Shown in pieces: positions 4,052-17,110 of a stretch of 64,000 bases of DNA. Position 1 is the first letter of the stretch. Every line of letters begins with the position of its first letter. Location: the NCBI GenBank assembly GCA_963697595.1, contig CAVOON010000002.1:15564-79563 (forward strand). The letters run 5' to 3'. The notes under the pieces are model-generated. The model had not been told where the DNA came from, searched no databases, and saw nothing but the letters and a program-made list of their open reading frames with translations. Source of the DNA: an uncultured Alphaproteobacteria bacterium. Its GTDB lineage: Bacteria > Pseudomonadota > Alphaproteobacteria > Rhizobiales > Beijerinckiaceae. The translations under genes were made by a program, and so were the position numbers.

Positions 4052-7000
4052 ATGGCGAATTCCGCTGCACAAAAATCCGTCGCCAAGGGCTCGGTCAAAG
4101 CGTCCGCAGGCGTTTTGAAAGCCACGCCGGGCGACGGGAAATGCATCTCCATTCGGGGTGCGCGTGAGCATAACCTCAAAAATGTCGATTTGATCATTCC
4201 CAGGGACAAGCTTGTCGTCTTCACAGGACTTTCGGGCTCGGGCAAGTCGTCCCTGGCTTTCGACACGATCTACGCGGAAGGGCAGCGGCGCTATGTCGAG
4301 TCCCTGTCGGCTTATGCCCGGCAGTTTCTCGAAATGATGCAAAAGCCCGACGTCGACCAGATAGACGGGCTTTCGCCGGCGATCTCCATCGAACAAAAAA
4401 CCACGTCGAAGAATCCGCGCTCAACCGTTGGAACGGTCACGGAGATTTACGACTATATGCGCCTGCTTTGGGCGCGGGTGGGCGTGCCTTACTCGCCCGC
4501 CACAGGCCTGCCGATCGAGAGCCAGACCGTTTCCCAGATGGTCGATCGCGTACTCTCATTGCCGCAGGGGACTCGGCTCTATTTGCTGGCGCCGGTCGTG
4601 CGGGGCCGTAAAGGAGAATACAAAAAGGAAATCGCGGACTATACGCGGCGTGGTTTCCAGCGACTGAAGGTCGATGGCGAATATTACGAAATAGCCGAGG
4701 CGCCGCCGCTCGACAAAAAACTGAAACACGACATTGACGTCGTGGTCGATCGCATCGTCGTGCGTCCGGACATGGCGGCGCGGCTTGCCGATAGTTTCGA
4801 GACCGCTCTGGAGTTATCTGGAGGACTGGCGGTCGCTGAGTTTGCTGATGGCGGCGCCGTAGGGAGCAATGCGGAAATTCCCGTAACCGCGACTAGTCTT
4901 CGCGTTGCGTCGCATTATGCGCCGGCGCATATCGTTTTTTCTTCGAAATTTGCTTGTCCAGTTTCCGGCTTCACGATCCCGGAGATCGAGCCGCGCCTGT
5001 TCTCCTTCAATAATCCTTTTGGCGCCTGTCCCAAATGCGGCGGCATTGGTCACGAACAAAAGATCGACGCCGACCTTGTTGTGCCGGACCCCAAGCTTAC
5101 GCTGCGGAAGGGAGCGATCGCGCCTTGGGCCAAATCTTCATCGCCTTACTACATGCAGACGCTCGAAGCGCTGGGGCGTCATTACAAATTTCGTCTGGAC
5201 ACTCCATTCCAGTCGCTGCCTTCCAATGCGCAACGCGTCATTCTCTATGGCTCGGGCGAAGAGGACATTCGTTTCTCCTACGACGACAGTTTTCGCGCCT
5301 ATGACGTGAAAAAGCCGTTCGAGGGAGTTGTTCCAAATCTGGAGCGCCGCTACCTGGAGACCGACAGCGACTGGTCTCGGGAGGAAATCGGCCGCTTCAT
5401 GTCGGCGACGCCCTGTCGCGCTTGCGGCGGCTTTCGCCTGAAGCCCGAGGCTTTGGCGGTAAAGATCGCTCACAAGCATATTGGCGAGGTTTCGGAGCTG
5501 TCCGTCCGCGCCGCGCTCGACTGGTTTTCGGCGCTGCCCTCGACACTGAGCGCCAAGCAAAACGAGATTGCCTATCGCATTTTGAAGGAAATCCGCGACC
5601 GCCTCACTTTCCTTGTCGACGTCGGGCTCGATTACCTCACATTGTCGCGCAACTCGGGCTCATTGTCCGGCGGCGAAAGTCAGCGCATCCGACTCGCTTC
5701 GCAGATCGGTTCTGGGCTGACAGGCGTGCTTTATGTGCTCGACGAGCCGTCGATCGGCCTGCATCAACGCGACAATGATCGGCTTTTGGACACATTGCGG
5801 CGACTGCGCGATCTCGGCAACAGCGTCATTGTCGTAGAACATGACGAAGACGCTATTCTCGCCGCGGATTATGTCGTCGACGTCGGCCCGGGAGCCGGCA
5901 TTCACGGCGGCAAGATTATCGCGCAGGGGACGCCGGCGCAGATCATGGCGAATCCCAAATCGCTCACCGGTCAATATCTGACCGGCGAGCGTCAGGTGAA
6001 GCTCGCACATAAATTGCGCAAGCCCGAGGCGGGCCGTTGGCTCAAGCTCTTCGGCGCGCGCGGCAATAATCTGAAGAACATTGACGCGCAGATTCCCCTT
6101 GGACTTTTCACCTGCATCACAGGCGTCTCCGGCGGCGGCAAGTCGACGCTGATCATCGAGACGCTTTACAAGGCGGTGGCGAAGAAGCTAAACGGCGCGC
6201 ACGAACATCCGGAGCCTTTCGACAAACTCGAGGGGTTGGAGCATATCGACAAGATCATTGACATTGATCAGTCGCCGATTGGCCGCACGCCACGCTCAAA
6301 TCCCGCCACCTATACGGGCGCCTTTACTCCGATCAGAGAATGGTTCGCCGGCCTACCCGAAGCCAAGGCGCGCGGCTATGCGCCGGGACGCTTTTCCTTC
6401 AATGTGAAGGGTGGCCGTTGCGAAGCCTGCCAGGGCGACGGCGTCATAAAAATCGAGATGCATTTTCTGCCTGACGTCTATGTCACTTGCGACGTCTGCA
6501 AGGGAAAGCGTTACGACCGCGAAACCCTGGAAGTAAAATATCGCGAAAAATCCATCGCCGACGTGCTCGACATGACAGTGGAAGAGGCGGCGCAATTGTT
6601 CAAAGCCGCGCCGTTGATCCGCGACAAGCTGGAGACTTTAAAACGCGTGGGGCTTGACTACGTCAGCGTGGGTCAGCAGGCGACGACGCTCTCAGGGGGC
6701 GAGGCGCAGCGCGTGAAGCTCGCCAAGGAGTTGGCCCGACGCTCTACCGGACGCACGCTCTATATTCTCGACGAGCCGACGACAGGCCTGCATTTCCACG
6801 ACGTGGCCAAGCTGCTGGAAGTGCTGCATGAACTGGTGGCGCAGGGCAACAGCGTCGTGGTCATTGAGCACAATCTGGAAGTCATCAAGACCGCGGATTG
6901 GGTCATCGACCTTGGGCCGGAGGGCGGCGACGGTGGCGGCGATATTGTTGTGGCGGGACCGCCGGCGGAGATTGTGAAGGAAAAGCGCAGCTACACGGGC

Positions 7001-7087
7001 CACTACCTCGCAGACGCCATGGCGCGGAGGCCGGTCAAGGAGATCCCGGAGCAAAAAAGCGTGAAAAGATCGGCGAGACAGAGCTAG
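4052..7087 (+). CDS. uvrA: Excinuclease ABC subunit A
   Basis: GAREHNLKN, two Walker A motifs ([18 protein letters not shown]), LSGGE signatures, Zn-finger CxxC pairs. Confidence 0.98.
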
Positions 7088-8358
7088 GATATTTGCAAAG
7101 CGGTGCGATCGGTCAGCGCCGCATCTTGCTGTTGTTGCGCTTCCCATTTTTGTCGAGCGGCCTCCAATCCCCAGACAACCCCCAACATCATCAGCACGTG
7201 GCGCCAGTGGTCGATGTCGATCTGGAAAGCTTGAAAAAAGAAAGCCAGCAGGGTCGGAACGAACACCTGCGCCTGGCGCTGGTATGGCGACGATCTGAAC
7301 ATCAGCGTCAGGCCGATGAAAGAGGTCACGCTGACGATGAGAATAAATAAAAAGCCGCCGAGCCAGCCGTCGTTGGCGAAGGCGCCGATGTAGGAATTAT
7401 GCGGTTCCAGATCGAATATGGTGCGAAAGCGCAAGGGGCCGAAACCCCAAAATCGCTCGACCAGCATTGGCAGCGAACGCAGCTGGTTGCCAAATCGTCC
7501 CGTCGCGCCTTCGTCGTACTCCTGCGTCACGGAGGCCCGTTGCAAAAACAGGTCGCGGGTCGACTCCATCGACAGCAGCGCCAGCACGACCACCGCGGCG
7601 ACAGCGAGCGCGACGAACGCCGAGACGGCGATGCGTTTCTTCAGCCGGAGATTTCTCGTGGTCCTGTAACCGGTGAAGGCCATCAACGTGATCGCAAAAA
7701 TCGTCGCTCCCCAGGAACCGCGGGAAAATGACAGAAAGATTGCGGCGACGACAATCGCCAGCATGACGACTGTAGCCAGGACATGGCGGGCTCGGGCGAA
7801 CATAAGGTTCTGCGCAAGATACAAAGCCGCGAGGATCAGGAAGGAACCGAGCACGTTCGGATCCTTGAAGGTTCCCGCTGCGCGTCCCCAAGTGGCGAAG
7901 ATTGAGCCGAAGCCCCCCAAATCGAAATAACCGATTATGCCCGCGGCCGAGGCGATCAGCGCCCCGGCGGTGAAGCCGGTCAGGATCAATTCCGTGCGCC
8001 GCTCCGTGCGGTCGGCGGCAAACAGCGCAAAGAACAATGCAGTTAGCGTGAGATAGGCGGACTGATATTGGTACATCGCGGATTCCGCGACATGCCAATA
8101 GGGAATCAACGAGAAAAAGCCGCATGTCGTATAAGACAGCAGGAGAGCCGCGAAGAGCAGAAAGCTCCGGTGCAGCGTGAAGCCGCCAAGGAACCATAAA
8201 GGAATCGCCACCAGGGATGCGAAATCGTAAGGCGAGGGTTCTACAAGCGCGATGGCCCCGCTTGCGACAAAAACCCAGGCGCTGAAATTGACCAGTTTTT
8301 GATAGTCGAAGAAAAGTTCAGACCGGGAGTTGGTTGGGGCGGCGCTCAGATGCGTCAT
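7084..8358 (-). CDS. O-antigen ligase/Wzy-like polysaccharide membrane protein
   Basis: Multi-TM protein with [18 protein letters not shown] and PHNSYI motifs. Confidence 0.75.
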
Positions 8359-9548
8359 GGCCGCGCCTTTATCGCCAGCGCCTCGCGATATCCGTTGATA
8401 ACTCCCTCGACCATACCGGACAACGGGAAGCGCGTGGAGATATATTCAGCCAGCCGGCGGGAGTTTTCTTCCTGTTCTCGCGGCTTTTCGTCGAGCGCGC
8501 GTTGGAGGGCGTCACAGAGTATCTTAGGGTCTCCGCAGGCAATCAGGCGATCGCTGTAAGGCCCGAATATTTCAGCCATGCCGCCAACACGCGTGGCGAT
8601 GATTGGCTTGTGTGCGCCCGCCGCCTCCAGCACTATATAAGGAAGGGATTCCGAACGGCTCGGCACCACCATAATCCGCCCTCGTGCAAACGCGGCGCGC
8701 GCGGCCATTGGCGCCCGGAAACTCAGCTGCGTCGAGATTCCGAGGCGTTGCGCCCTAGCGATCAGGGCGGCCTTTTCGAAGCCGTCGCCCACCAGCAAGA
8801 GGCTCGGACGCAGGTTCGTCGTCTTGATCAAAAGTCCCATCGCGTCGATGAGAGTGTCCAGCCCCTTGGCGACGCGAAACTCGCCGACATAAAGGAGGTC
8901 GGCGGCGTCATCTCTTAGCGGCACCGGTTCCAGCTCGTAAGGTGCAATGCCATTGCGCACCACATGAGCGAGATGACGGGGCTTGCCGACAAGCGCTTCA
9001 AAGCGGTTGGCGATATAGGCGCTTTCGAACAGTAAAATGTCCGTGCGATAGGCGAGGATCGCCTCCATCGTCATATAGAGTCGGTGGCTCACGGCGCCCG
9101 GATGATAGTTCAGGCTGCCCCCATGCGGCGTATAGGCGCGTATGGCGCGAGACTGCATCGAGGGCAATCCGGCGAGTTGAGCGAATAGCCCTCCCTTGGA
9201 TCCATGACCGTGCACGACGTCGGGACGAATTTTGGCCAGTCGTCTCGCAACAGCGCCCAAAACAGTAAAATCGCTGATGTCGGGCAGGCGAACCATCGGT
9301 AGACGAAGAAGACCGAGCGCGAGATGTGGCTCCAGTTCGGCGAGTTGGTCGTCGCCGCGGGCGCCGCCGGTCAGAGAATCCGCTATGAGGCCGACTTGAT
9401 GGCCTCTTGCGATCTGCTCCCAGGCGAGATCGCGGACGTGACGAAAAAGTCCCCCGACCGGAGCCCGCAGAACATGGACTATTCGCAAAGGCTTCGCAGT
9501 GGGTATGTTTGGAGTGACAGCCAGGTCACCGGAGGTCAACTGCGTCAC
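8355..9548 (-). CDS. Glycosyltransferase family 4
   Basis: VHVLRAPVGGLFRHV, HGHGSKGG, VVPSRSESLPYIVLEA (Ex7E) motifs. Confidence 0.88.
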   Translation of the reverse strand: MTQLTSGDLAVTPNIPTAKPLRIVHVLRAPVGGLFRHVRDLAWEQIARGHQVGLIADSLTGGARGDDQLAELEPHLALGLLRLPMVRLPDISDFTVLGAVARRLAKIRPDVVHGHGSKGGLFAQLAGLPSMQSRAIRAYTPHGGSLNYHPGAVSHRLYMTMEAILAYRTDILLFESAYIANRFEALVGKPRHLAHVVRNGIAPYELEPVPLRDDAADLLYVGEFRVAKGLDTLIDAMGLLIKTTNLRPSLLLVGDGFEKAALIARAQRLGISTQLSFRAPMAARAAFARGRIMVVPSRSESLPYIVLEAAGAHKPIIATRVGGMAEIFGPYSDRLIACGDPKILCDALQRALDEKPREQEENSRRLAEYISTRFPLSGMVEGVINGYREALAIKARP

Positions 9549-9881
9549 TCGCGTGGCGCCTTTCTGGTTCGGGAGGGCGCCGTCGCTACAGCGCGGCCAA
9601 TCCGTCGCGCGCCTGCCGCGCGATCCTGCGCGTCAGAATATTAGGAACAGGTTGGTTAATTTTGGATGAGCGTCGGCGTCGCGCGTGAATGGGCTATGAC
9701 CGCGGCGCTCAACCTCTGTGCTGTTGCGTGAGAGCATAGCGCCGGCTCCGCCCGGAATGGACGATTGAAACCGCTCGCGAGTAACGATCCGACCTCGACG
9801 GATTTGCTTTTTGAACTATACTAAAATAGTCGGAAAGAGGAACTGGCAGAGCGTATTGCGCGATACAGAGGGAGATCGATC

Positions 9882-12079: not shown

Positions 12080-12282
12080 CAAGCTCACCAAGGAATGGGA
12101 AGCCTCTCGTTACCCACGTCGGTAACATGCGGACGTAAGAACAGCCCGCATTGAGACATTCGAACACGCGATAACGTTCTGCTCAAAAGCGGTCCAACTT
12201 ATTGCCCAAACTGAGCGCCTCCGGCGCTTCGTAATTCGCGGGCCGAAGGGCTAATTAAAGCGTCTTATAATGCTCCGGAGAC

Positions 12283-12310
12283 TTGGCAAGGGTTGCGTTT
12301 GCGCCATAAT
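12283..12310 (+). promoter_or_regulatory. Putative sigma70 promoter TTGGCA-N16-CATAAT of the peptidase-cyclase operon
   Basis: Near-consensus hexamers 37 bp upstream of ATG 12348. Confidence 0.45.
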
Positions 12311-12347
12311 GCCCTATTTTAATTCCGGGAGATTCGATATATTTGAG

Positions 12348-12884
12348 ATGGCGGAACAGACCAGCAACCCGGTGCCCGTAGGGGCGCAGAAAGCCGTTAT
12401 CTGGGCTTTCGCGGAGCGAATCGCAAGGGAGCTTAAGTTCAAGCCCAGCGACGCAATAGAATTGCTTGTTCTTCGGCTCGGCGGCAAGATTGAATACAAG
12501 AGCCCCACCCGACAGGACGGCCGATTGCCAGAATCGATTATCGTTCGATCTACAAAGGACTTTACAATCTATCTGCCGAGCATGACGTCGCCGCAACGTG
12601 ATAGGTTCACAATCGCACATGAACTCGGGCATTTTTGGTTGCATTATCCACTTGCAGCGAAAAAGGTTCCTGGTTTGCCGATGATGGCTACACGTTGGGT
12701 TGATGAATTAGATTCTGAGCTCGTTCGGACCGAGTGGGAAGCTAACTGGTTTGCTGCAGCTTTTCTTATGCCAGAAGTTCAATTTAGGGCTGCGTATAAT
12801 AAAGGCGGGGCCGATTTCGCCGCCTGCGAATTCAATGTAAGCGCGCATGCTGCAAGGGTGCGAGCGAAAAGCCTTTCTCTCTAG
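12348..12884 (+). CDS. ImmA/IrrE (Peptidase M78) zinc metallopeptidase, no N-terminal XRE HTH
   Basis: RDRFTIAHELGH (HExxH) and EWEANWFAAAFLMP motifs; the start could be as far upstream as 12270. Confidence 0.9.
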   Translation: MAEQTSNPVPVGAQKAVIWAFAERIARELKFKPSDAIELLVLRLGGKIEYKSPTRQDGRLPESIIVRSTKDFTIYLPSMTSPQRDRFTIAHELGHFWLHYPLAAKKVPGLPMMATRWVDELDSELVRTEWEANWFAAAFLMPEVQFRAAYNKGGADFAACEFNVSAHAARVRAKSLSL

Positions 12885-12892
12885 GTTGAAAC

Positions 12893-13981
12893 ATGGGGAT
12901 TTGTCCGAGCTACCGGCTCCGTCTCTTCATGTCCGTCGATCTGGTTGGGTCTACCGAGTTTAAAACGGGAGAGGGCAAAGATAGGGGAAATACTACCGAC
13001 CCTCACCCAAGGTGGGTGCAGGAAACAAAAAGATTTTATGTCAGCTTCCCTAAGTTTTTGCAGAGTCATTTTAGGGATGAATCTCCAAGATTTGGCATAA
13101 TTGAGAATGAGAGCGCGCCTAAGCTATGGAAAACAATCGGAGACGAGGTGGTTTTTTGCGTGAGAGTTCATAATTTAGAGCATTTCACTGCATGCGTTAC
13201 ATCCTTTATAAGGGCTTTAAGAGACTATGGAAGGCAATTGGAGAACGATGGGTTCCTTGACGTCAAGGGAACTATATGGGTCGGTGCCTTTCCAGCCCCA
13301 AATACAAGCGTAATGATATCTGGTTGCGATAGCAATTCTGGATATAACACCAAAATAGACGAGAACTATTGCGAGGAATATGAGCAAGCAGCTGACGATG
13401 AGCCGCGGAACTTTGATTTTTTAGGCAGAGACATTGATTTAGGATTTCGGATCGCAAAGCATGCAAGAGCAGAGGATCTCGCGTTATCATGTGAGGCCGC
13501 ATTTCTACTATGTGAAGCAAATAAGGCTCATCAATTTCATGAGAAATTTAATTTTAATGGCCGGGACGTCTTAAAGGGCGTCATGCGCGGCAAACCATAC
13601 CCGGTTGTAACCATAGATACGGAGCGTAATAATCTTAAATCAGAAATTGCAGATCTTGAGAGTAATTTATCCGGTGGCGGAGGTGCAAATGTAAACGTTA
13701 ACAGTCTTAGTAGATTTCTAACACTGTTATTTGGCGTAGAGAAAATTGCTTTTCCTGTTTTGCCAAAGCGTGGGCACGCTATTGAAGCCATGCCAAGTGA
13801 TTACAATGAGTTCGTTGGCCTTTGGCAGGAGGAGCAGTTCGAGATTACTTCTCGCGAGGAAGGAGAAGATCGTTCGGCGACTGAAGACTCCCCACCAGCG
13901 CAAGAGGGAAAAACAATCGACGAACAAGTCAACGAGCTATCTGCCAATATCCAGCCCATAGGCGAGACAGAGGATGATTGA
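12893..13981 (+). CDS. Divergent class III nucleotidyl-cyclase-like protein with acidic C-terminal tail
   Basis: Ordered motifs FMSVDLVGST (D16), WKTIGDEVV (K80, D84), FDFLGRDIDLGFRI (D175, D182, R186) and LKGV match the class III cyclase pattern. Confidence 0.7.
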   Translation: MGICPSYRLRLFMSVDLVGSTEFKTGEGKDRGNTTDPHPRWVQETKRFYVSFPKFLQSHFRDESPRFGIIENESAPKLWKTIGDEVVFCVRVHNLEHFTACVTSFIRALRDYGRQLENDGFLDVKGTIWVGAFPAPNTSVMISGCDSNSGYNTKIDENYCEEYEQAADDEPRNFDFLGRDIDLGFRIAKHARAEDLALSCEAAFLLCEANKAHQFHEKFNFNGRDVLKGVMRGKPYPVVTIDTERNNLKSEIADLESNLSGGGGANVNVNSLSRFLTLLFGVEKIAFPVLPKRGHAIEAMPSDYNEFVGLWQEEQFEITSREEGEDRSATEDSPPAQEGKTIDEQVNELSANIQPIGETEDD

Positions 13982-14109
13982 GCGCGGCGCACTGGACGAC
14001 AGTGGTATTTCTCGCCATTCTCAACGCGGTCCTGATCCTTGCGCCGCCGTATCTCGGGCAAATGCAACGAAGTAATGAGGTCACAGCCCCGCGGGAGAAC
14101 GCGGACGCT

Positions 14110-14400
14110 TCAAAGGTGTTCCATCGTCTGGAGAATTGTTTCGCAAGTCTCACGTGCGCTGCGCCCATCGTCGGCATGGCCCGTCCCGCTATTGAATGGC
14201 GCGCCGCCCGGGCCAATCTGCACAGCCCAGAACCATCGCCCATCATGCGGGCCGCCGCTGACTCGGTAAATGCGCGCCGCGGGAAGGTTGCCGAGCAAAA
14301 GCGACCAATCGTCCGCGAGAACTTCAACCACGCCATCAATCAGCGTGAACGCCGTTCGCCGCCATTTGAAGGATGCAGGGTCGGAATACGCGTTAGGCAT
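14110..14400 (-). CDS. Small hypothetical phage-type protein
   Basis: Start overlaps the SRAP stop; DW..LG.LPAARIYRVSGGPHDGRWFW looks like natural protein sequence. Confidence 0.65.
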   Translation of the reverse strand: MPNAYSDPASFKWRRTAFTLIDGVVEVLADDWSLLLGNLPAARIYRVSGGPHDGRWFWAVQIGPGGAPFNSGTGHADDGRSARETCETILQTMEHL

Positions 14401-15064
14401 TTTCGATCGGCTCGATAAGCGTCGAGTCATCGTCGCCTGCCCCGGCCTTATTCACGCGTGTAGAGACGATCCATTCTTGCAAAGCATCTTCCGGCAGCGA
14501 GTGCAGCAGTGTGGCAGCGGTTTCGCCCCTCAACCACGCTTCGGCGTCGTGCCAATCGAGAATGACAGGCATGCGGTCATGAAAGCGTTGCATCCAATTA
14601 TTCGCCCCGCCGACGATGATAGTCGCGTTTGGAAGATCGTCGCCGCCATCAAGGCCGCTCCAATGATCCCATAGGCCAGCTAACGCCAGAGGCCAGCCGT
14701 CGCGCGACGTGAAATAGTGCGGCGTCTTCGCCCCTTTCGCTCCTGTCCATTCATAGAAGCCGGAAGCCGGGATGATGCAGCGTCGATATTTGAACGCCCC
14801 GCGAAACATCGGTCTTTCAAGCACCGTTTCAGCGCGGGCGTTGAAGGTGGCGGGAAGCTCTTTGAGCGGCTTTTTCCACCAGGAGGGCACAAGGCCCCAA
14901 TACATCGGGACAAGCTCATTGCCGCGTTCGCCAGCGCGAATGACCTCTATCGGCGTCGTAGGGGCGATGTTGAAACGCGGCGCGAGATTGCGCGGCTGGC
15001 CGATTAGATCGGCTAAGCGATGGATTTCCGCCCATGAGAGATTCTGAGTGAAGCGTCCGCACAT
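14393..15064 (-). CDS. SOS response-associated peptidase (SRAP, YedK/HMCES family)
   Basis: N-terminal MCGRF, RFNIAPT, WGLVPSW, FNARAET, RRCIIPASGFYEW, HDRMPVIL. Confidence 0.95.
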   Translation of the reverse strand: MCGRFTQNLSWAEIHRLADLIGQPRNLAPRFNIAPTTPIEVIRAGERGNELVPMYWGLVPSWWKKPLKELPATFNARAETVLERPMFRGAFKYRRCIIPASGFYEWTGAKGAKTPHYFTSRDGWPLALAGLWDHWSGLDGGDDLPNATIIVGGANNWMQRFHDRMPVILDWHDAEAWLRGETAATLLHSLPEDALQEWIVSTRVNKAGAGDDDSTLIEPIENA

Positions 15065-15171
15065 GGCGAGGATCGTAACGCGGCGGCCGTCGAACGGAAA
15101 CCAACCTTCGCCATATTTGGCTCACGCCACCCCGCTCGCGATCGTCCATCTGCGATCCGCGGTGATGAGAT

Positions 15172-15378
15172 CTAGCGTCTCCGTTGCATCCGCCTGATTT
15201 CATCCTTCACGCGCTGCCAATGTTCCGCTGACCTGTTGGCGTCGACAACTTGTGGGGCTTCATGCTGGCGCAAGCGCGCTTCGCCATAGGCGTTCGCGCC
15301 GCAGCTTTCGATTAGGTCGCGCGCATCGGATTCGATAAGGGCGCGGGAAGTGCGCCGGCGGCGCAGCCAATTAAGCAC
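15172..15378 (-). CDS. Small hypothetical protein (68 aa)
   Basis: Start lies 5 bp after the stop of the 2TM gene; sequence is helical and natural-looking. Confidence 0.6.
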   Translation of the reverse strand: MLNWLRRRRTSRALIESDARDLIESCGANAYGEARLRQHEAPQVVDANRSAEHWQRVKDEIRRMQRRR

Positions 15379-15383
15379 TCGCG

Positions 15384-16079
15384 TTAGCCGGGAGAGCCCG
15401 TAAGCTCATCGTGAGCCTTAAACGTGCTGGGGGTGAAAGGCCAAAGGTGGCGAATGAAACTCGCCTTCCACCCAATATCCAATGAATATTTTTCTGGGCG
15501 TCCGTATGAGGCCATCGCCCTGTTATATGCGACTGCGTTGACGGCATACATGCACGGCGGCTCTTCGGCATAAATCAAGGTCAGCCGTCTTTCCAGATTA
15601 TTCAAGTTATCATGCCCATTTGCATCGGCGAGCACGCTATAAATTTGCTTTCTTAATCCGGCGTGCAAGCGAGCCTTCCCACTCAAATCAAAGACAAGAT
15701 CAAGCAGCCCAACGAGTGTTGTGAAGGCTGGAATTGCGTGAGGGTAGGTTTCTTTAAGTGGCGACAATGCGGCGGTCCCGGACGCAACGACTAAGAACAT
15801 CGCAGCACGGTGCGTCCAAGCAAAAAAGCGTTCTCTATCTTCGTGATAGAGAGCGCTCGCTAGACACCTAATTCTAAAATCATCGATTCCGTCTATTTGC
15901 TGTCCCTCGGCGGTCGGACGGGAGGCGGAGCTTTGGTCTGACTGTCCTGCCGGCCAATTCCGTGATCCTTCGCTAGATCTGGATGCCCCCTCGACGGTTG
16001 AGGCTTTGGCGGTGGAGGCGGTGGTGGTGGGGGAGACGGCTTTTTCTTCTCGGTCATTTGGTTTAATATCATTTGTCAT
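15384..16079 (-). CDS. SLATT-like two-transmembrane protein
   Basis: After a disordered S/T-rich N-terminus: ALYHEDRERFF, TM1 AAMFLVVASGTAAL, TM2 AIPAFTTLVGLLDLVFDL, ARLH..LR, EEPP, AYN. Recognised by pattern only. Confidence 0.55.
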   Translation of the reverse strand: MTNDIKPNDREEKAVSPTTTASTAKASTVEGASRSSEGSRNWPAGQSDQSSASRPTAEGQQIDGIDDFRIRCLASALYHEDRERFFAWTHRAAMFLVVASGTAALSPLKETYPHAIPAFTTLVGLLDLVFDLSGKARLHAGLRKQIYSVLADANGHDNLNNLERRLTLIYAEEPPCMYAVNAVAYNRAMASYGRPEKYSLDIGWKASFIRHLWPFTPSTFKAHDELTGSPG

Positions 16080-16399
16080 GATGACAGCCGCTCCCGTTGC
16101 GTGATAGGATTCCCTACACGGCGAAGAGGTTCGTCAATTTCGACGCGAGCGGGGATTCCGGCCCTGCCCATCAATCCCCCACCATAATCTATATCTGCGG
16201 CGTGGGCTAGGCTCACGCCGCCAAATGGCGCTGCCAATACCCGTTAAAGTCGACGCTCGGCTTATCCTTCATGGCTGGGCCCGCAATCCGAAGGGAGTGG
16301 TCGCCATTGCTCATGCTGCGGTGATCCTCGCGCCATGAAGCCACGTGGGCGTAGCGGATATGATAATGGCCGATCTGCGCGCGGCGGCGTAGCCACCCG

Positions 16400-16882
16400 T
16401 CATTTGCAAGCTTTCCCGGCCGCGCGCCAGTCAAACCAGATGCGTCGGCGCGCGTCGTCCAGCGTGATCTTTCCGGCGCATGTCGCCCGCGACAGGCAGG
16501 CCTCGATTGCGTCTTTCTCTCCGGCTTCGTCCCACGGCTGTAATTCGAGGTTTCGAAGATCTGAAGGCGCGCCTCCAAGCGCGAGCGGTATCCTGTGATC
16601 CAGTTCGAAGTCGACAAGGAGCTCTTCGGGGATTTCCAGCTCACGAATGAGTTTGATTTTAACAGCCGCCGTGTAGCGCGGCGAGGGCCGCACAGTCTTC
16701 GTCCAGCCGGGAAGGCATATCGTCGAAGCGATGGTCGCCTGGGTTACGGATGGGTTAACGGGCAAATCGGCGGAGAGGGCGGCATCGCTCGCATTCGCCA
16801 TAGCGAATAGCATTGCCGAAAACGCCAGGCGGGACTTTCGATGTGATATCGCTTCTTCGCTGCAAACGGTAGCTGAAATCAT
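16400..16882 (-). CDS. Exported HNH-motif protein
   Basis: Signal-like RKSRLAFSAMLFAMANASDAALSA; NPSVTQATI..TIC, ELDHRIPLALGG..D..NL..QP, KD..E. Confidence 0.7.
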   Translation of the reverse strand: MISATVCSEEAISHRKSRLAFSAMLFAMANASDAALSADLPVNPSVTQATIASTICLPGWTKTVRPSPRYTAAVKIKLIRELEIPEELLVDFELDHRIPLALGGAPSDLRNLELQPWDEAGEKDAIEACLSRATCAGKITLDDARRRIWFDWRAAGKACK

Positions 16883-17110
16883 GGGGTCTCTTTTACACAA
16901 TGCGCTATAGCAGCCGGTGTAGTTCGGCTCTTCGACTTTTGGAAGTCTTTCGTTATGGCGCGGGCCTCGGTGGGCACGCGGCAAACGCGATCAAGAGCCG
17001 TATAGCCTACGCGCCTTCCGTCAGGCCCTCGGTAGCCCGGGCGACCGAGCCGCGTGCTCACGCGCGCGAACCGGCGAGGCACACTCGCCGCGTTGGGTGC
17101 TAGGGCCTCT

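Follow-up and report, generated by a model that had tools for sequence, protein, structure and literature searches.

A SLATT-like two-transmembrane protein family carried as IS1595 transposon cargo and its solitary member in a Beijerinckiaceae genomic island

Introduction

Does a small membrane protein encoded close to a cyclase-like gene serve as the effector of that cyclase, or does it act on its own? The question is raised by a locus of an uncultured alphaproteobacterium of the family Beijerinckiaceae (GenBank assembly GCA_963697595.1, contig CAVOON010000002.1, positions 15,564 to 79,563), of which the whole stretch of 64,000 nucleotides, hereafter the window, was analyzed. At positions 15384-16079, in the cargo region of a tRNA-Lys island, the window holds a gene that a sequence-only reading had described as coding for a SLATT-like protein with two transmembrane (TM) helices. 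The same reading had proposed this protein as the missing effector of a cyclase 1.4 kb away, with an independent abortive-infection or exclusion gene as the fallback.

SLATT proteins are usually discussed downstream of a signal-making enzyme, be it a CD-NTase, a TIR protein, or a reverse transcriptase, and SLATT_4 is the two-TM effector of SMODS/CD-NTase operons of the CBASS (an antiphage signaling system based on cyclic oligonucleotides) type. Two-TM proteins of the SLATT kind serve as the effectors that kill the cell or arrest its growth in CBASS, type VII Thoeris, and DRT10 (bioRxiv 10.64898/2025.12.03.692087; 10.64898/2026.04.29.721553). In type VII Thoeris, the SLATT effector is ThsH and the TIR protein makes cyclic ADP-ribose (cADPR), SLATT effectors being also found in CBASS (bioRxiv 10.64898/2025.12.03.692087), while DRT10/UG17 uses a SLATT_5 effector (bioRxiv 10.64898/2026.04.29.721553). 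For the gene in the window, the evidence presented here points, at somewhat better than even confidence, to a stand-alone membrane-permeabilizing conflict effector with a role in defense or exclusion.

Results and Discussion

Architecture of the SLATT-like protein

The coordinates of the features are collected in Table 1. Hydropathy and an AlphaFold2 model, for which 32 homologues were used as input, both reveal the architecture of the SLATT superfamily, that is, an N-terminal helix, two adjacent TM helices, and a helical C-region. In the model (mean predicted local distance difference test score, pLDDT, of 82, and above 90 for residues 61-210), helices span residues 64-101, 115-129, 132-153, 159-172, and 178-191. 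The hydropathy segments coincide with these helices, in agreement with the two TM helices described earlier. Both segments are moderately hydrophobic, with Kyte-Doolittle 19-residue means of 1.0-1.6, and an amphipathic helix with Y78, H79, and R82 precedes the first of them. By the inferred positive-inside topology, the C-terminal domain (C-domain) would be cytoplasmic; it carries conserved basic and polar residues in the family alignment and is a candidate ligand or oligomerization surface.

Table 1. Coordinates of the SLATT-like gene, its surroundings, and related loci (window positions unless a locus or accession is named; residues refer to the SLATT-like protein unless stated otherwise).
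Feature	Location	Strand	Remarks
SLATT-like gene	15384..16079	-	intact 231-aa open reading frame (ORF); ATG start
N-terminal region	residues 1-63		Ser/Thr/Ala-rich; predicted disordered
Conserved core	residues 64-228
Predicted TM helix 1	15756..15818	-	residues ~88-108; carries near-invariant G101; hydropathy and model helix 64-101
Predicted TM helix 2	15681..15743	-	residues ~113-133; ends in conserved DLVFD; hydropathy and model helix 115-129
Helical C-domain	15396..15680	-	residues 134-228; conserved R137, H139, LRK/R, Y170, E173-P-P, A184-Y-N186-x-A188, R210
Leader	16080..16215	-	136 nt between transposase remnant and gene; hairpin 16100-16120; Shine-Dalgarno 16091-16095
IS1595-family (ISXO2-like DDE) transposase, 3' remnant	16216..16386	-	residues 264-327 of 327 of the transposase
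68-aa ORF	15172..15378	-	starts 5 nt past the stop codon of the SLATT-like gene
Three-gene block (68-aa ORF, SRAP, 106-aa ORF)	14110-15378	-	recurs in the genome
M78 peptidase and cyclase-like gene pair	12270-13981	+	M78 = ImmA/IrrE, CapP-like; PADLOC capP E 4e-22
Transposon, L004	6747-9826		3,080 bp; 8-bp duplication CCCTGGAG
Transposon, L005 (Afipia)	6795-9569		2,775 bp; 8-bp duplication AATTTAAA
Transposon, L003 (Lichenihabitans)	7088-9686		2,599 bp; 8-bp duplication CTAATTTG
Upstream ORF, L004	7793-7912
Upstream ORF, L005	7793-7912
Upstream ORF, L023	4877-4984
Upstream ORF, L027	4877-4984
Upstream ORF, L007	7029-7130
Upstream ORF, L013	5787-5918
Upstream ORF, L006	7710-7865
gp49 of phiE255 (Burkholderia Mu-like phage), L114	NC_009237.1 34330-34866		family hidden Markov model (HMM) E 6.7e-39
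Family member, L115	OW969859.1 172428-173006		Klebsiella pneumoniae plasmid; phage region

Across 145 diverse family members, the most conserved positions are Y78, H79, R82, G101, L128, A136, H139, E173 (with the two prolines that follow), A184, N186, and A188. Column retention amounted to 89% for Y78, 87% for H79, 86% for R82, 97% for H139, 95% for E173, 84% for P174, 90% for A184, and 98% for N186. The motifs picked out by the sequence-only reading (YH..R, EEPP, and AYN) are therefore real, each falling on highly conserved columns. As specific to the family we regard YHxDRE, DLVFD, EEPP, and AYNxA, together with the long disordered N-terminus. At the DNA level, a GGGAG Shine-Dalgarno sequence lies 11 nt 5' of the ATG. 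The gene has a GC content of 52.3% (53% at third codon positions, GC3) compared with 58-62% in neighboring genes and 59-60% in the genome, and the DNA is indeed AT-richer, as had been noticed.

Relationship to the SLATT superfamily

Neither Pfam nor NCBIfam holds a model for this family, and Pfam annotation was present on 0/60 of the close homologues found. Searched against Pfam, NCBIfam, and PADLOC, the window protein gave no SLATT or defense match, the sole family match being phrog_11791, of unknown function. The 145 diverse members were then scanned singly against NCBIfam and Pfam. SLATT_4 (NF033632) was matched by 80 of them (best E 8.2e-6, all under the cut-off) and SLATT_1 (NF033634) by 28 (best E 3.4e-5), while unrelated NCBIfam models each recurred in at most six members. 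The Pfam matches comprised DUF4231 in 10 members, SLATT_1 in nine, and SLATT_4 in five.

A profile of the same 145 members (A3) was aligned by hhalign with a reference of 36 true SLATT_4 proteins (A4), which had been seeded by a homologue search from the canonical protein of locus L015; 201 genomes of the class had yielded only two SLATT_4 sequences. The alignment reached a probability of 90.5%, an E-value of 1.4e-6, and a score of 48.5 over 92 columns. Shuffling the columns of the query 60 times gave scores of at most 21.4 and probabilities of at most 2.9%, and the reversed-alignment control scored 22.5. TM helix 2 aligned with TM2 of SLATT_4, and the conserved D, H, Y..P, and Y..A positions of both sides coincided, D131, H139, Y170, P174, Y185, and A188 being aligned to D95, H103, Y149, P153, Y160, and A163 of SLATT_4. 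Among the best 34 Foldseek matches in BFVD, nine were SLATT-named, with probabilities of 0.75-1.0. Finally, family member P0168 consists of a TIR domain fused to the family domain, and TIR fusion is a typical arrangement of SLATT proteins.

On the strength of the sub-threshold model matches, the hhalign result with its shuffle controls, the coinciding conserved residues, and the structure matches, the family is best placed as a divergent branch of the SLATT superfamily without a curated model. Since the curated cut-offs were missed, we did not file the protein under any curated SLATT family. The earlier description as SLATT-like thus holds at the level of the superfamily, where the profile alignment far exceeds its shuffles and the TIR fusion and viral structure matches agree with it, and fails at the level of curated families, the window protein alone matching no model.

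Compared with SLATT_4 (PF18186 / NF033632), the window protein shares the N-terminal helix, which in both bears an aromatic and a basic residue, the two-TM hairpin, and the helical cytoplasmic C-domain. It differs in its own motifs and its long disordered N-terminus, it lies under the curated cut-off, and it has no SMODS gene adjacent or elsewhere in the genome. In another alphaproteobacterial genome, the SLATT_4 locus mentioned above (L015, G071:C3, 3-2040) combines an M78/CapP-like peptidase, a SMODS nucleotidyltransferase, and SLATT_4 in one operon. With ThsH and the DRT10 effector, the family has in common that these are SLATT-superfamily membrane proteins on mobile elements, and it includes the TIR fusion and a Thoeris-like neighbor at locus L014; the window, however, has no nearby TIR or reverse transcriptase gene. 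Association with a signaling enzyme is rare in the family, with one TIR fusion (P0168) and one Thoeris-like neighbor (L014). By Pfam annotation for part of the loci, and by targeted searches for the others, most family members lack a recognized signal-making neighbor. In the window, no SMODS, SLOG, TIR, or reverse transcriptase gene adjoins the SLATT-like gene, and the TIR genes of the genome are located on other contigs.

Relation to the nearby cyclase

The cyclase-like gene ends at 13981, leaving 1,403 bp to the 3' end of the SLATT-like ORF on the opposite strand, with the SRAP gene (14393-15064) in between; the geometry given earlier is in agreement with these coordinates. Co-occurrence was examined in both directions. 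Of 35 family-locus records (~30 distinct loci, 355 kb), none encodes a cyclase, M78 peptidase, or SRAP relative; conversely, 60 cyclase-homologue loci were all without a family member or SLATT_4 ORF, even at E <= 1. With no co-occurrence in either direction, the idea of a missing cyclase effector is not supported, and the fallback of an independent gene becomes the better reading.

The recurring partner of the cyclase is the M78 peptidase, the gene of which occurs in 43 of ~60 cyclase-homologue loci and lies directly upstream of the cyclase in the three loci where positions were examined; no third partner recurs. The M78 peptidase and the divergent cyclase-like gene constitute a conserved two-gene module, and the cyclase itself gave no Pfam match and no PDB sequence match. 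GC3 differs as well (53% in the SLATT-like gene versus 43% in the cyclase). On these comparisons, the SLATT-like gene is evolutionarily unlinked to the M78-cyclase pair. The arrangement resembles Pycsar (PycC and PycTM) in that a class III-like cyclase and a small membrane protein are found within 1.5 kb on a mobile island, but here the two genes do not form an operon, do not co-occur, and the constant partner of the cyclase is a peptidase.

Carriage by IS1595-family elements

What lies directly 5' of the gene, on the same strand, is the remnant of a transposase. It shares 59% identity (tblastn, E 7e-18) with an intact Methylocystis transposase, which in turn matches Pfam DDE_Tnp_IS1595 at 2.6e-35. 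In a Methylocystis metagenome-assembled genome (L001), an intact transposase is followed by the homologue with a 133-nt spacing, as in the window. A metagenome contig (L111) has its transposase cut at residue 261, compared with 264 in the window, and in L012, with 72% protein identity, nucleotide similarity extends ~245 nt 5' of the start codon. As no other island gene was shared with any of the 12 family loci checked, the unit of inheritance is, judging from these alignments, a cassette of ~1 kb comprising transposase remnant, leader, and gene. This cassette recurs in unrelated mobile elements.

Complete elements were found in L003, L004, and L005, where terminal inverted repeats and perfect 8-bp direct repeats enclose a homologue and a convergent IS1595-family transposase, and an 8-bp duplication is a hallmark of this family. 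Besides the gene, the cargo of each transposon includes ~1 kb of additional DNA that varies between them. L001, L004, and L005 have an intact transposase, and that of L003 is apparently frameshifted. Three independent insertions identify the family gene as genuine IS1595 transposon cargo in these loci. Neither for the co-directional transposase-gene unit of L001 nor for the closest intact insertion sequence (IS) copy in the genome of the window was an inverted repeat with target duplication found.

IS1595-family elements with passenger genes were reportedly described by Siguier, Gagnevin, and Chandler (Res Microbiol 2009) under the name 'transporter IS' (tIS); to our knowledge, no SLATT-like passenger has been described for the family. 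L003, L004, and L005 correspond to the tIS scheme, with the homologue lying within the repeats beside a DDE_Tnp_IS1595 transposase. The window keeps the transposase 3' end directly upstream of the gene, although its element is a relic with neither an intact transposase nor demonstrable ends. We therefore interpret the gene in the window as an intact passenger that a decayed IS1595 element appears to have left behind.

Leader and upstream peptides

The leader between the remnant and the gene is conserved in L012, L111, and L001, as nucleotides and not as a peptide. In a comparison of four sequences in all, the pairing of its hairpin is kept in L001 by four compensatory double changes, and the Shine-Dalgarno sequence of the SLATT-like gene is predicted to pair with an upstream CUCUUC. 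The fold energy of the leader is ordinary (z = -0.65), and Rfam gave no match on 15000-17000. A structured regulatory leader is a lead only. An overlapping ORF at 16076-16237 was considered as a coding partner and rejected, with nine non-synonymous and two synonymous changes relative to L012 and a frameshift in L001.

Relatives carry a different element at this place. In at least seven family loci, an upstream ORF of 33-51 codons lies directly 5' of the gene, and its peptide is rich in lysine and arginine with a proline-rich end, for example MAKKAKKAKKAK...PPGPRPR, or PVPPPRSK and similar. Of the first 16 codons, 13 differ when L005 is compared with L023, in every case synonymously, and nearly all differences among distant copies are of this kind. 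This pattern indicates that the upstream ORF is translated and under purifying selection; its product could serve as a leader that stalls ribosomes, or as a small protein partner. The lineage of the window is without the Lys-rich upstream peptide.

Family size, distribution, and genomic settings

A profile search over 1.84 billion representative proteins yielded 1,925 family clusters at 50% identity with E <= 1e-3, and 1,062 with E <= 1e-10. The distribution among genomes is patchy: the gene was present in 10/401 genomes of the order and in 0/12 other genomes of the same family, one of which belongs to the same genus. N-terminal extensions seen in L100 and L101 were judged to be ORF over-calls in high-GC DNA.

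Settings of the family gene vary. It follows an XRE regulator in L110, stands beside the integrases of integrated elements in L107 and L109, lies among AAA_25, KAP NTPase, and trypsin-like genes of a mobile-element region in L023-L026, is found in a region with a phage-type prohead protease in L027 and L028, and stands alone amid housekeeping genes in L013 and L029. At L014 (4339-6546), member P0055 is divergent from a ThsA_Macro and ThsB_TIR pair at a distance of 265 bp, within a mobile element in which a primase and a group II intron reverse transcriptase are likewise encoded, a setting like that of a defense island. In two unrelated phage backgrounds (L114 and L115), the member is located in an operon just 5' of a holin-endolysin(-spanin) cassette, a placement suggestive of a connection with lysis, or with late expression, in these phage lineages.

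On its 3' side, the SLATT-like gene of the window is followed by the 68-aa ORF, which is probably a neighbor and not a partner. Its paralogue (59%) at C3:780008-780199 has no SLATT-like gene nearby, and a decayed copy follows the homologue in L111 only, being absent from the other family loci. The 68-aa ORF is part of the block that also includes SRAP and a 106-aa ORF; the latter two exist in three genome copies with 71-98% protein identity, and the 68-aa ORF has one paralogue. The other copies of the block (G000 C3:780008-782232 and C3:2754985-2755927) are both without a SLATT-like gene, and at least the one at C3:780008 lies within another AlpA-containing island. Both the 68-aa ORF and SRAP were thus rejected as partners, being part of a three-copy block that occurs without the SLATT-like gene.

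Two further observations concern the flanks. Directly after the cyclase stop codon, where the GC content rises from ~45% to ~58%, positions 13941-14000 (minus strand) show a weak 20-residue match to an IS1595 transposase C-terminus (65% identity, E 3e-4 within the window), perhaps the scar of a second IS, in which case the segment from 14.0 to 16.4 kb would be bracketed by IS scars. On the other side, a 194-aa ORF at 16400-16984 (minus strand) combines an N-terminus resembling a signal peptide with an HNH-like motif, DHRIPLALGG...N; it gave no significant family match and has a 61% paralogue at C3:2714053-2714442.

Possible function and alternative explanations

For a stand-alone conflict effector, a mechanism can be proposed that follows what is reported for the SLATT effectors of CBASS, ThsH, and DRT10. 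The cassette would have reached the cargo region of the tRNA-Lys island through an IS1595-type event, with the transposase decaying later. Its protein would form a helical hairpin in the membrane, the N- and the C-terminus both being cytoplasmic, and upon a cue, the conserved, positively charged C-domain would drive oligomerization into a membrane-breaching or depolarizing assembly. The outcome would be abortive infection, exclusion of competing phages, or stabilization of the carrier element.

Several points weigh against this assignment. All family matches lie under the curated SLATT cut-offs, even the best member staying below the 55-bit cut-off of SLATT_4, and the window protein itself has no SLATT match in Pfam (E <= 0.1) or NCBIfam (E <= 1). 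The hhalign match is limited to TM2 and the C-domain. Foldseek against PDB and a profile search of PDB sequences gave no match, and the Foldseek matches come with weak E-values (0.02-1 overall, 0.04-0.6 for the BFVD matches with the probabilities given above) and TM-scores of 0.3-0.45. For the carriage, neither an inverted repeat nor a target duplication can be demonstrated in the window, the transposase being truncated. No RNA sequencing run holds the region, which is represented in soil-metagenome DNA only, and no toxicity, pore, or defense phenotype is known for any family member. A local or trans functional link to the cyclase would also count against a stand-alone role, and such a link is highly improbable in our estimation.

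If that link existed, the protein would be the membrane effector of the M78-cyclase module, gated by the nucleotide product of the cyclase in a three-gene system of the Pycsar or CBASS kind. Such a system might be expected from the distance of 1.4 kb within the same cargo region, from the nucleotide gating of SLATT proteins elsewhere, from the basic residues conserved in the C-domain, and from the 60 cyclase loci, in which no effector is conserved alongside the M78-cyclase pair. We rate it as only a slight chance, considering the missing co-occurrence in both sets of loci, the opposite strands, the three-copy SRAP block and IS1595 remnant that intervene, the diverging GC3, and the solitary cassette in unrelated elements. 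That the gene is a non-functional relic, or codes for a membrane protein without a conflict role that came in with the IS1595 fragment and has not yet decayed, is very unlikely as well. The truncated transposase next to it, the absence of the region from RNA sequencing runs, and the lack of a promoter-like site found on the strand of the gene would fit a relic. However, the ORF is full length with every near-invariant family residue kept, and the truncated arrangement persists in L111 and L012 with the frame intact at ~73% nucleotide identity, which argues for selection on the gene.

Two other explanations give the protein an active role of another kind. It may be an addiction or stabilization toxin of its mobile carrier (IS1595 transposon, satellite, or prophage), checked by a cis element; in relatives this would be the upstream peptide, rich in lysine and ending in proline, and in the window it would be the structured leader. 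This is unlikely, in our view. It would account for a passenger gene in small transposons with target duplications, for a basic upstream ORF with synonymous-only differences directly before the gene in at least seven loci, and for the compensatory changes in a hairpin next to a Shine-Dalgarno sequence that is predicted to be paired; yet the window has no basic peptide, the fold energy of its leader is ordinary, the covariation stems from one sequence, and some members are solitary amid housekeeping genes. Rather doubtful, too, is a phage lysis-associated protein, that is, a holin-like pore, an antiholin, or a lysis-timing regulator used by a satellite-like island. Members do lie just upstream of a holin-endolysin cassette in phiE255 and in the Klebsiella plasmid-borne phage region, and a few match Pfam Phage_holin_3_7 weakly (E 0.01-0.04). 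Both phages, however, have a separate canonical holin beside the member, holins lack a conserved cytoplasmic domain of ~100 residues, and the holin matches stay under the cut-off and are confined to the TM helices; the window protein reached E 0.043 and 14 bits, under the cut-off of 25.4. No gene searched between 9.9 and 22.8 kb of the window matched a lysis family, and annotated lysis genes are missing from the surroundings of most members, that of the window included, though no systematic lysis-gene search was made. Of the readings considered, the stand-alone conflict effector is the one we prefer.

Conclusion

The gene at 15384-16079 combines two known kinds of biology, namely the SLATT-type two-TM effector and the passenger-carrying IS1595 element. 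New in comparison with curated resources and the searchable literature are a large family without a model, its solitary habit, its carriage by IS1595 elements, and the basic, proline-terminated leader peptide of relatives. As a more speculative extension, to which we give a small but not negligible chance, the family could be a conflict module reduced to a minimum and complete in itself, in which a single SLATT-like pore gene, usually with a translated poly-lysine leader peptide before it, is the standard cargo of IS1595-family transposons, Mu-like phages, and satellites. In such a module, the Lys-rich proline-stall peptide of relatives, or the Shine-Dalgarno-sequestering hairpin in the lineage of the window, would make pore translation depend on ribosome state or on infection. 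If this were true, no separate signal-making enzyme would be needed, and a SLATT effector sensing its own trigger would have been spread by transposition.

For the island, the search for a cyclase effector gave a negative but useful result. The M78-cyclase module is better studied as a two-gene system whose effector, if any, is missing, and the SLATT-like gene should not be assumed to fill this place. For the family, the finding matters in that a relative of SLATT is almost always solitary and moves as cargo of transposons, phages, or islands. If the family is active, a SLATT-type pore would be triggered without a dedicated partner, and a defense-like or addiction-like function would be added to the passenger repertoire of IS1595 elements.

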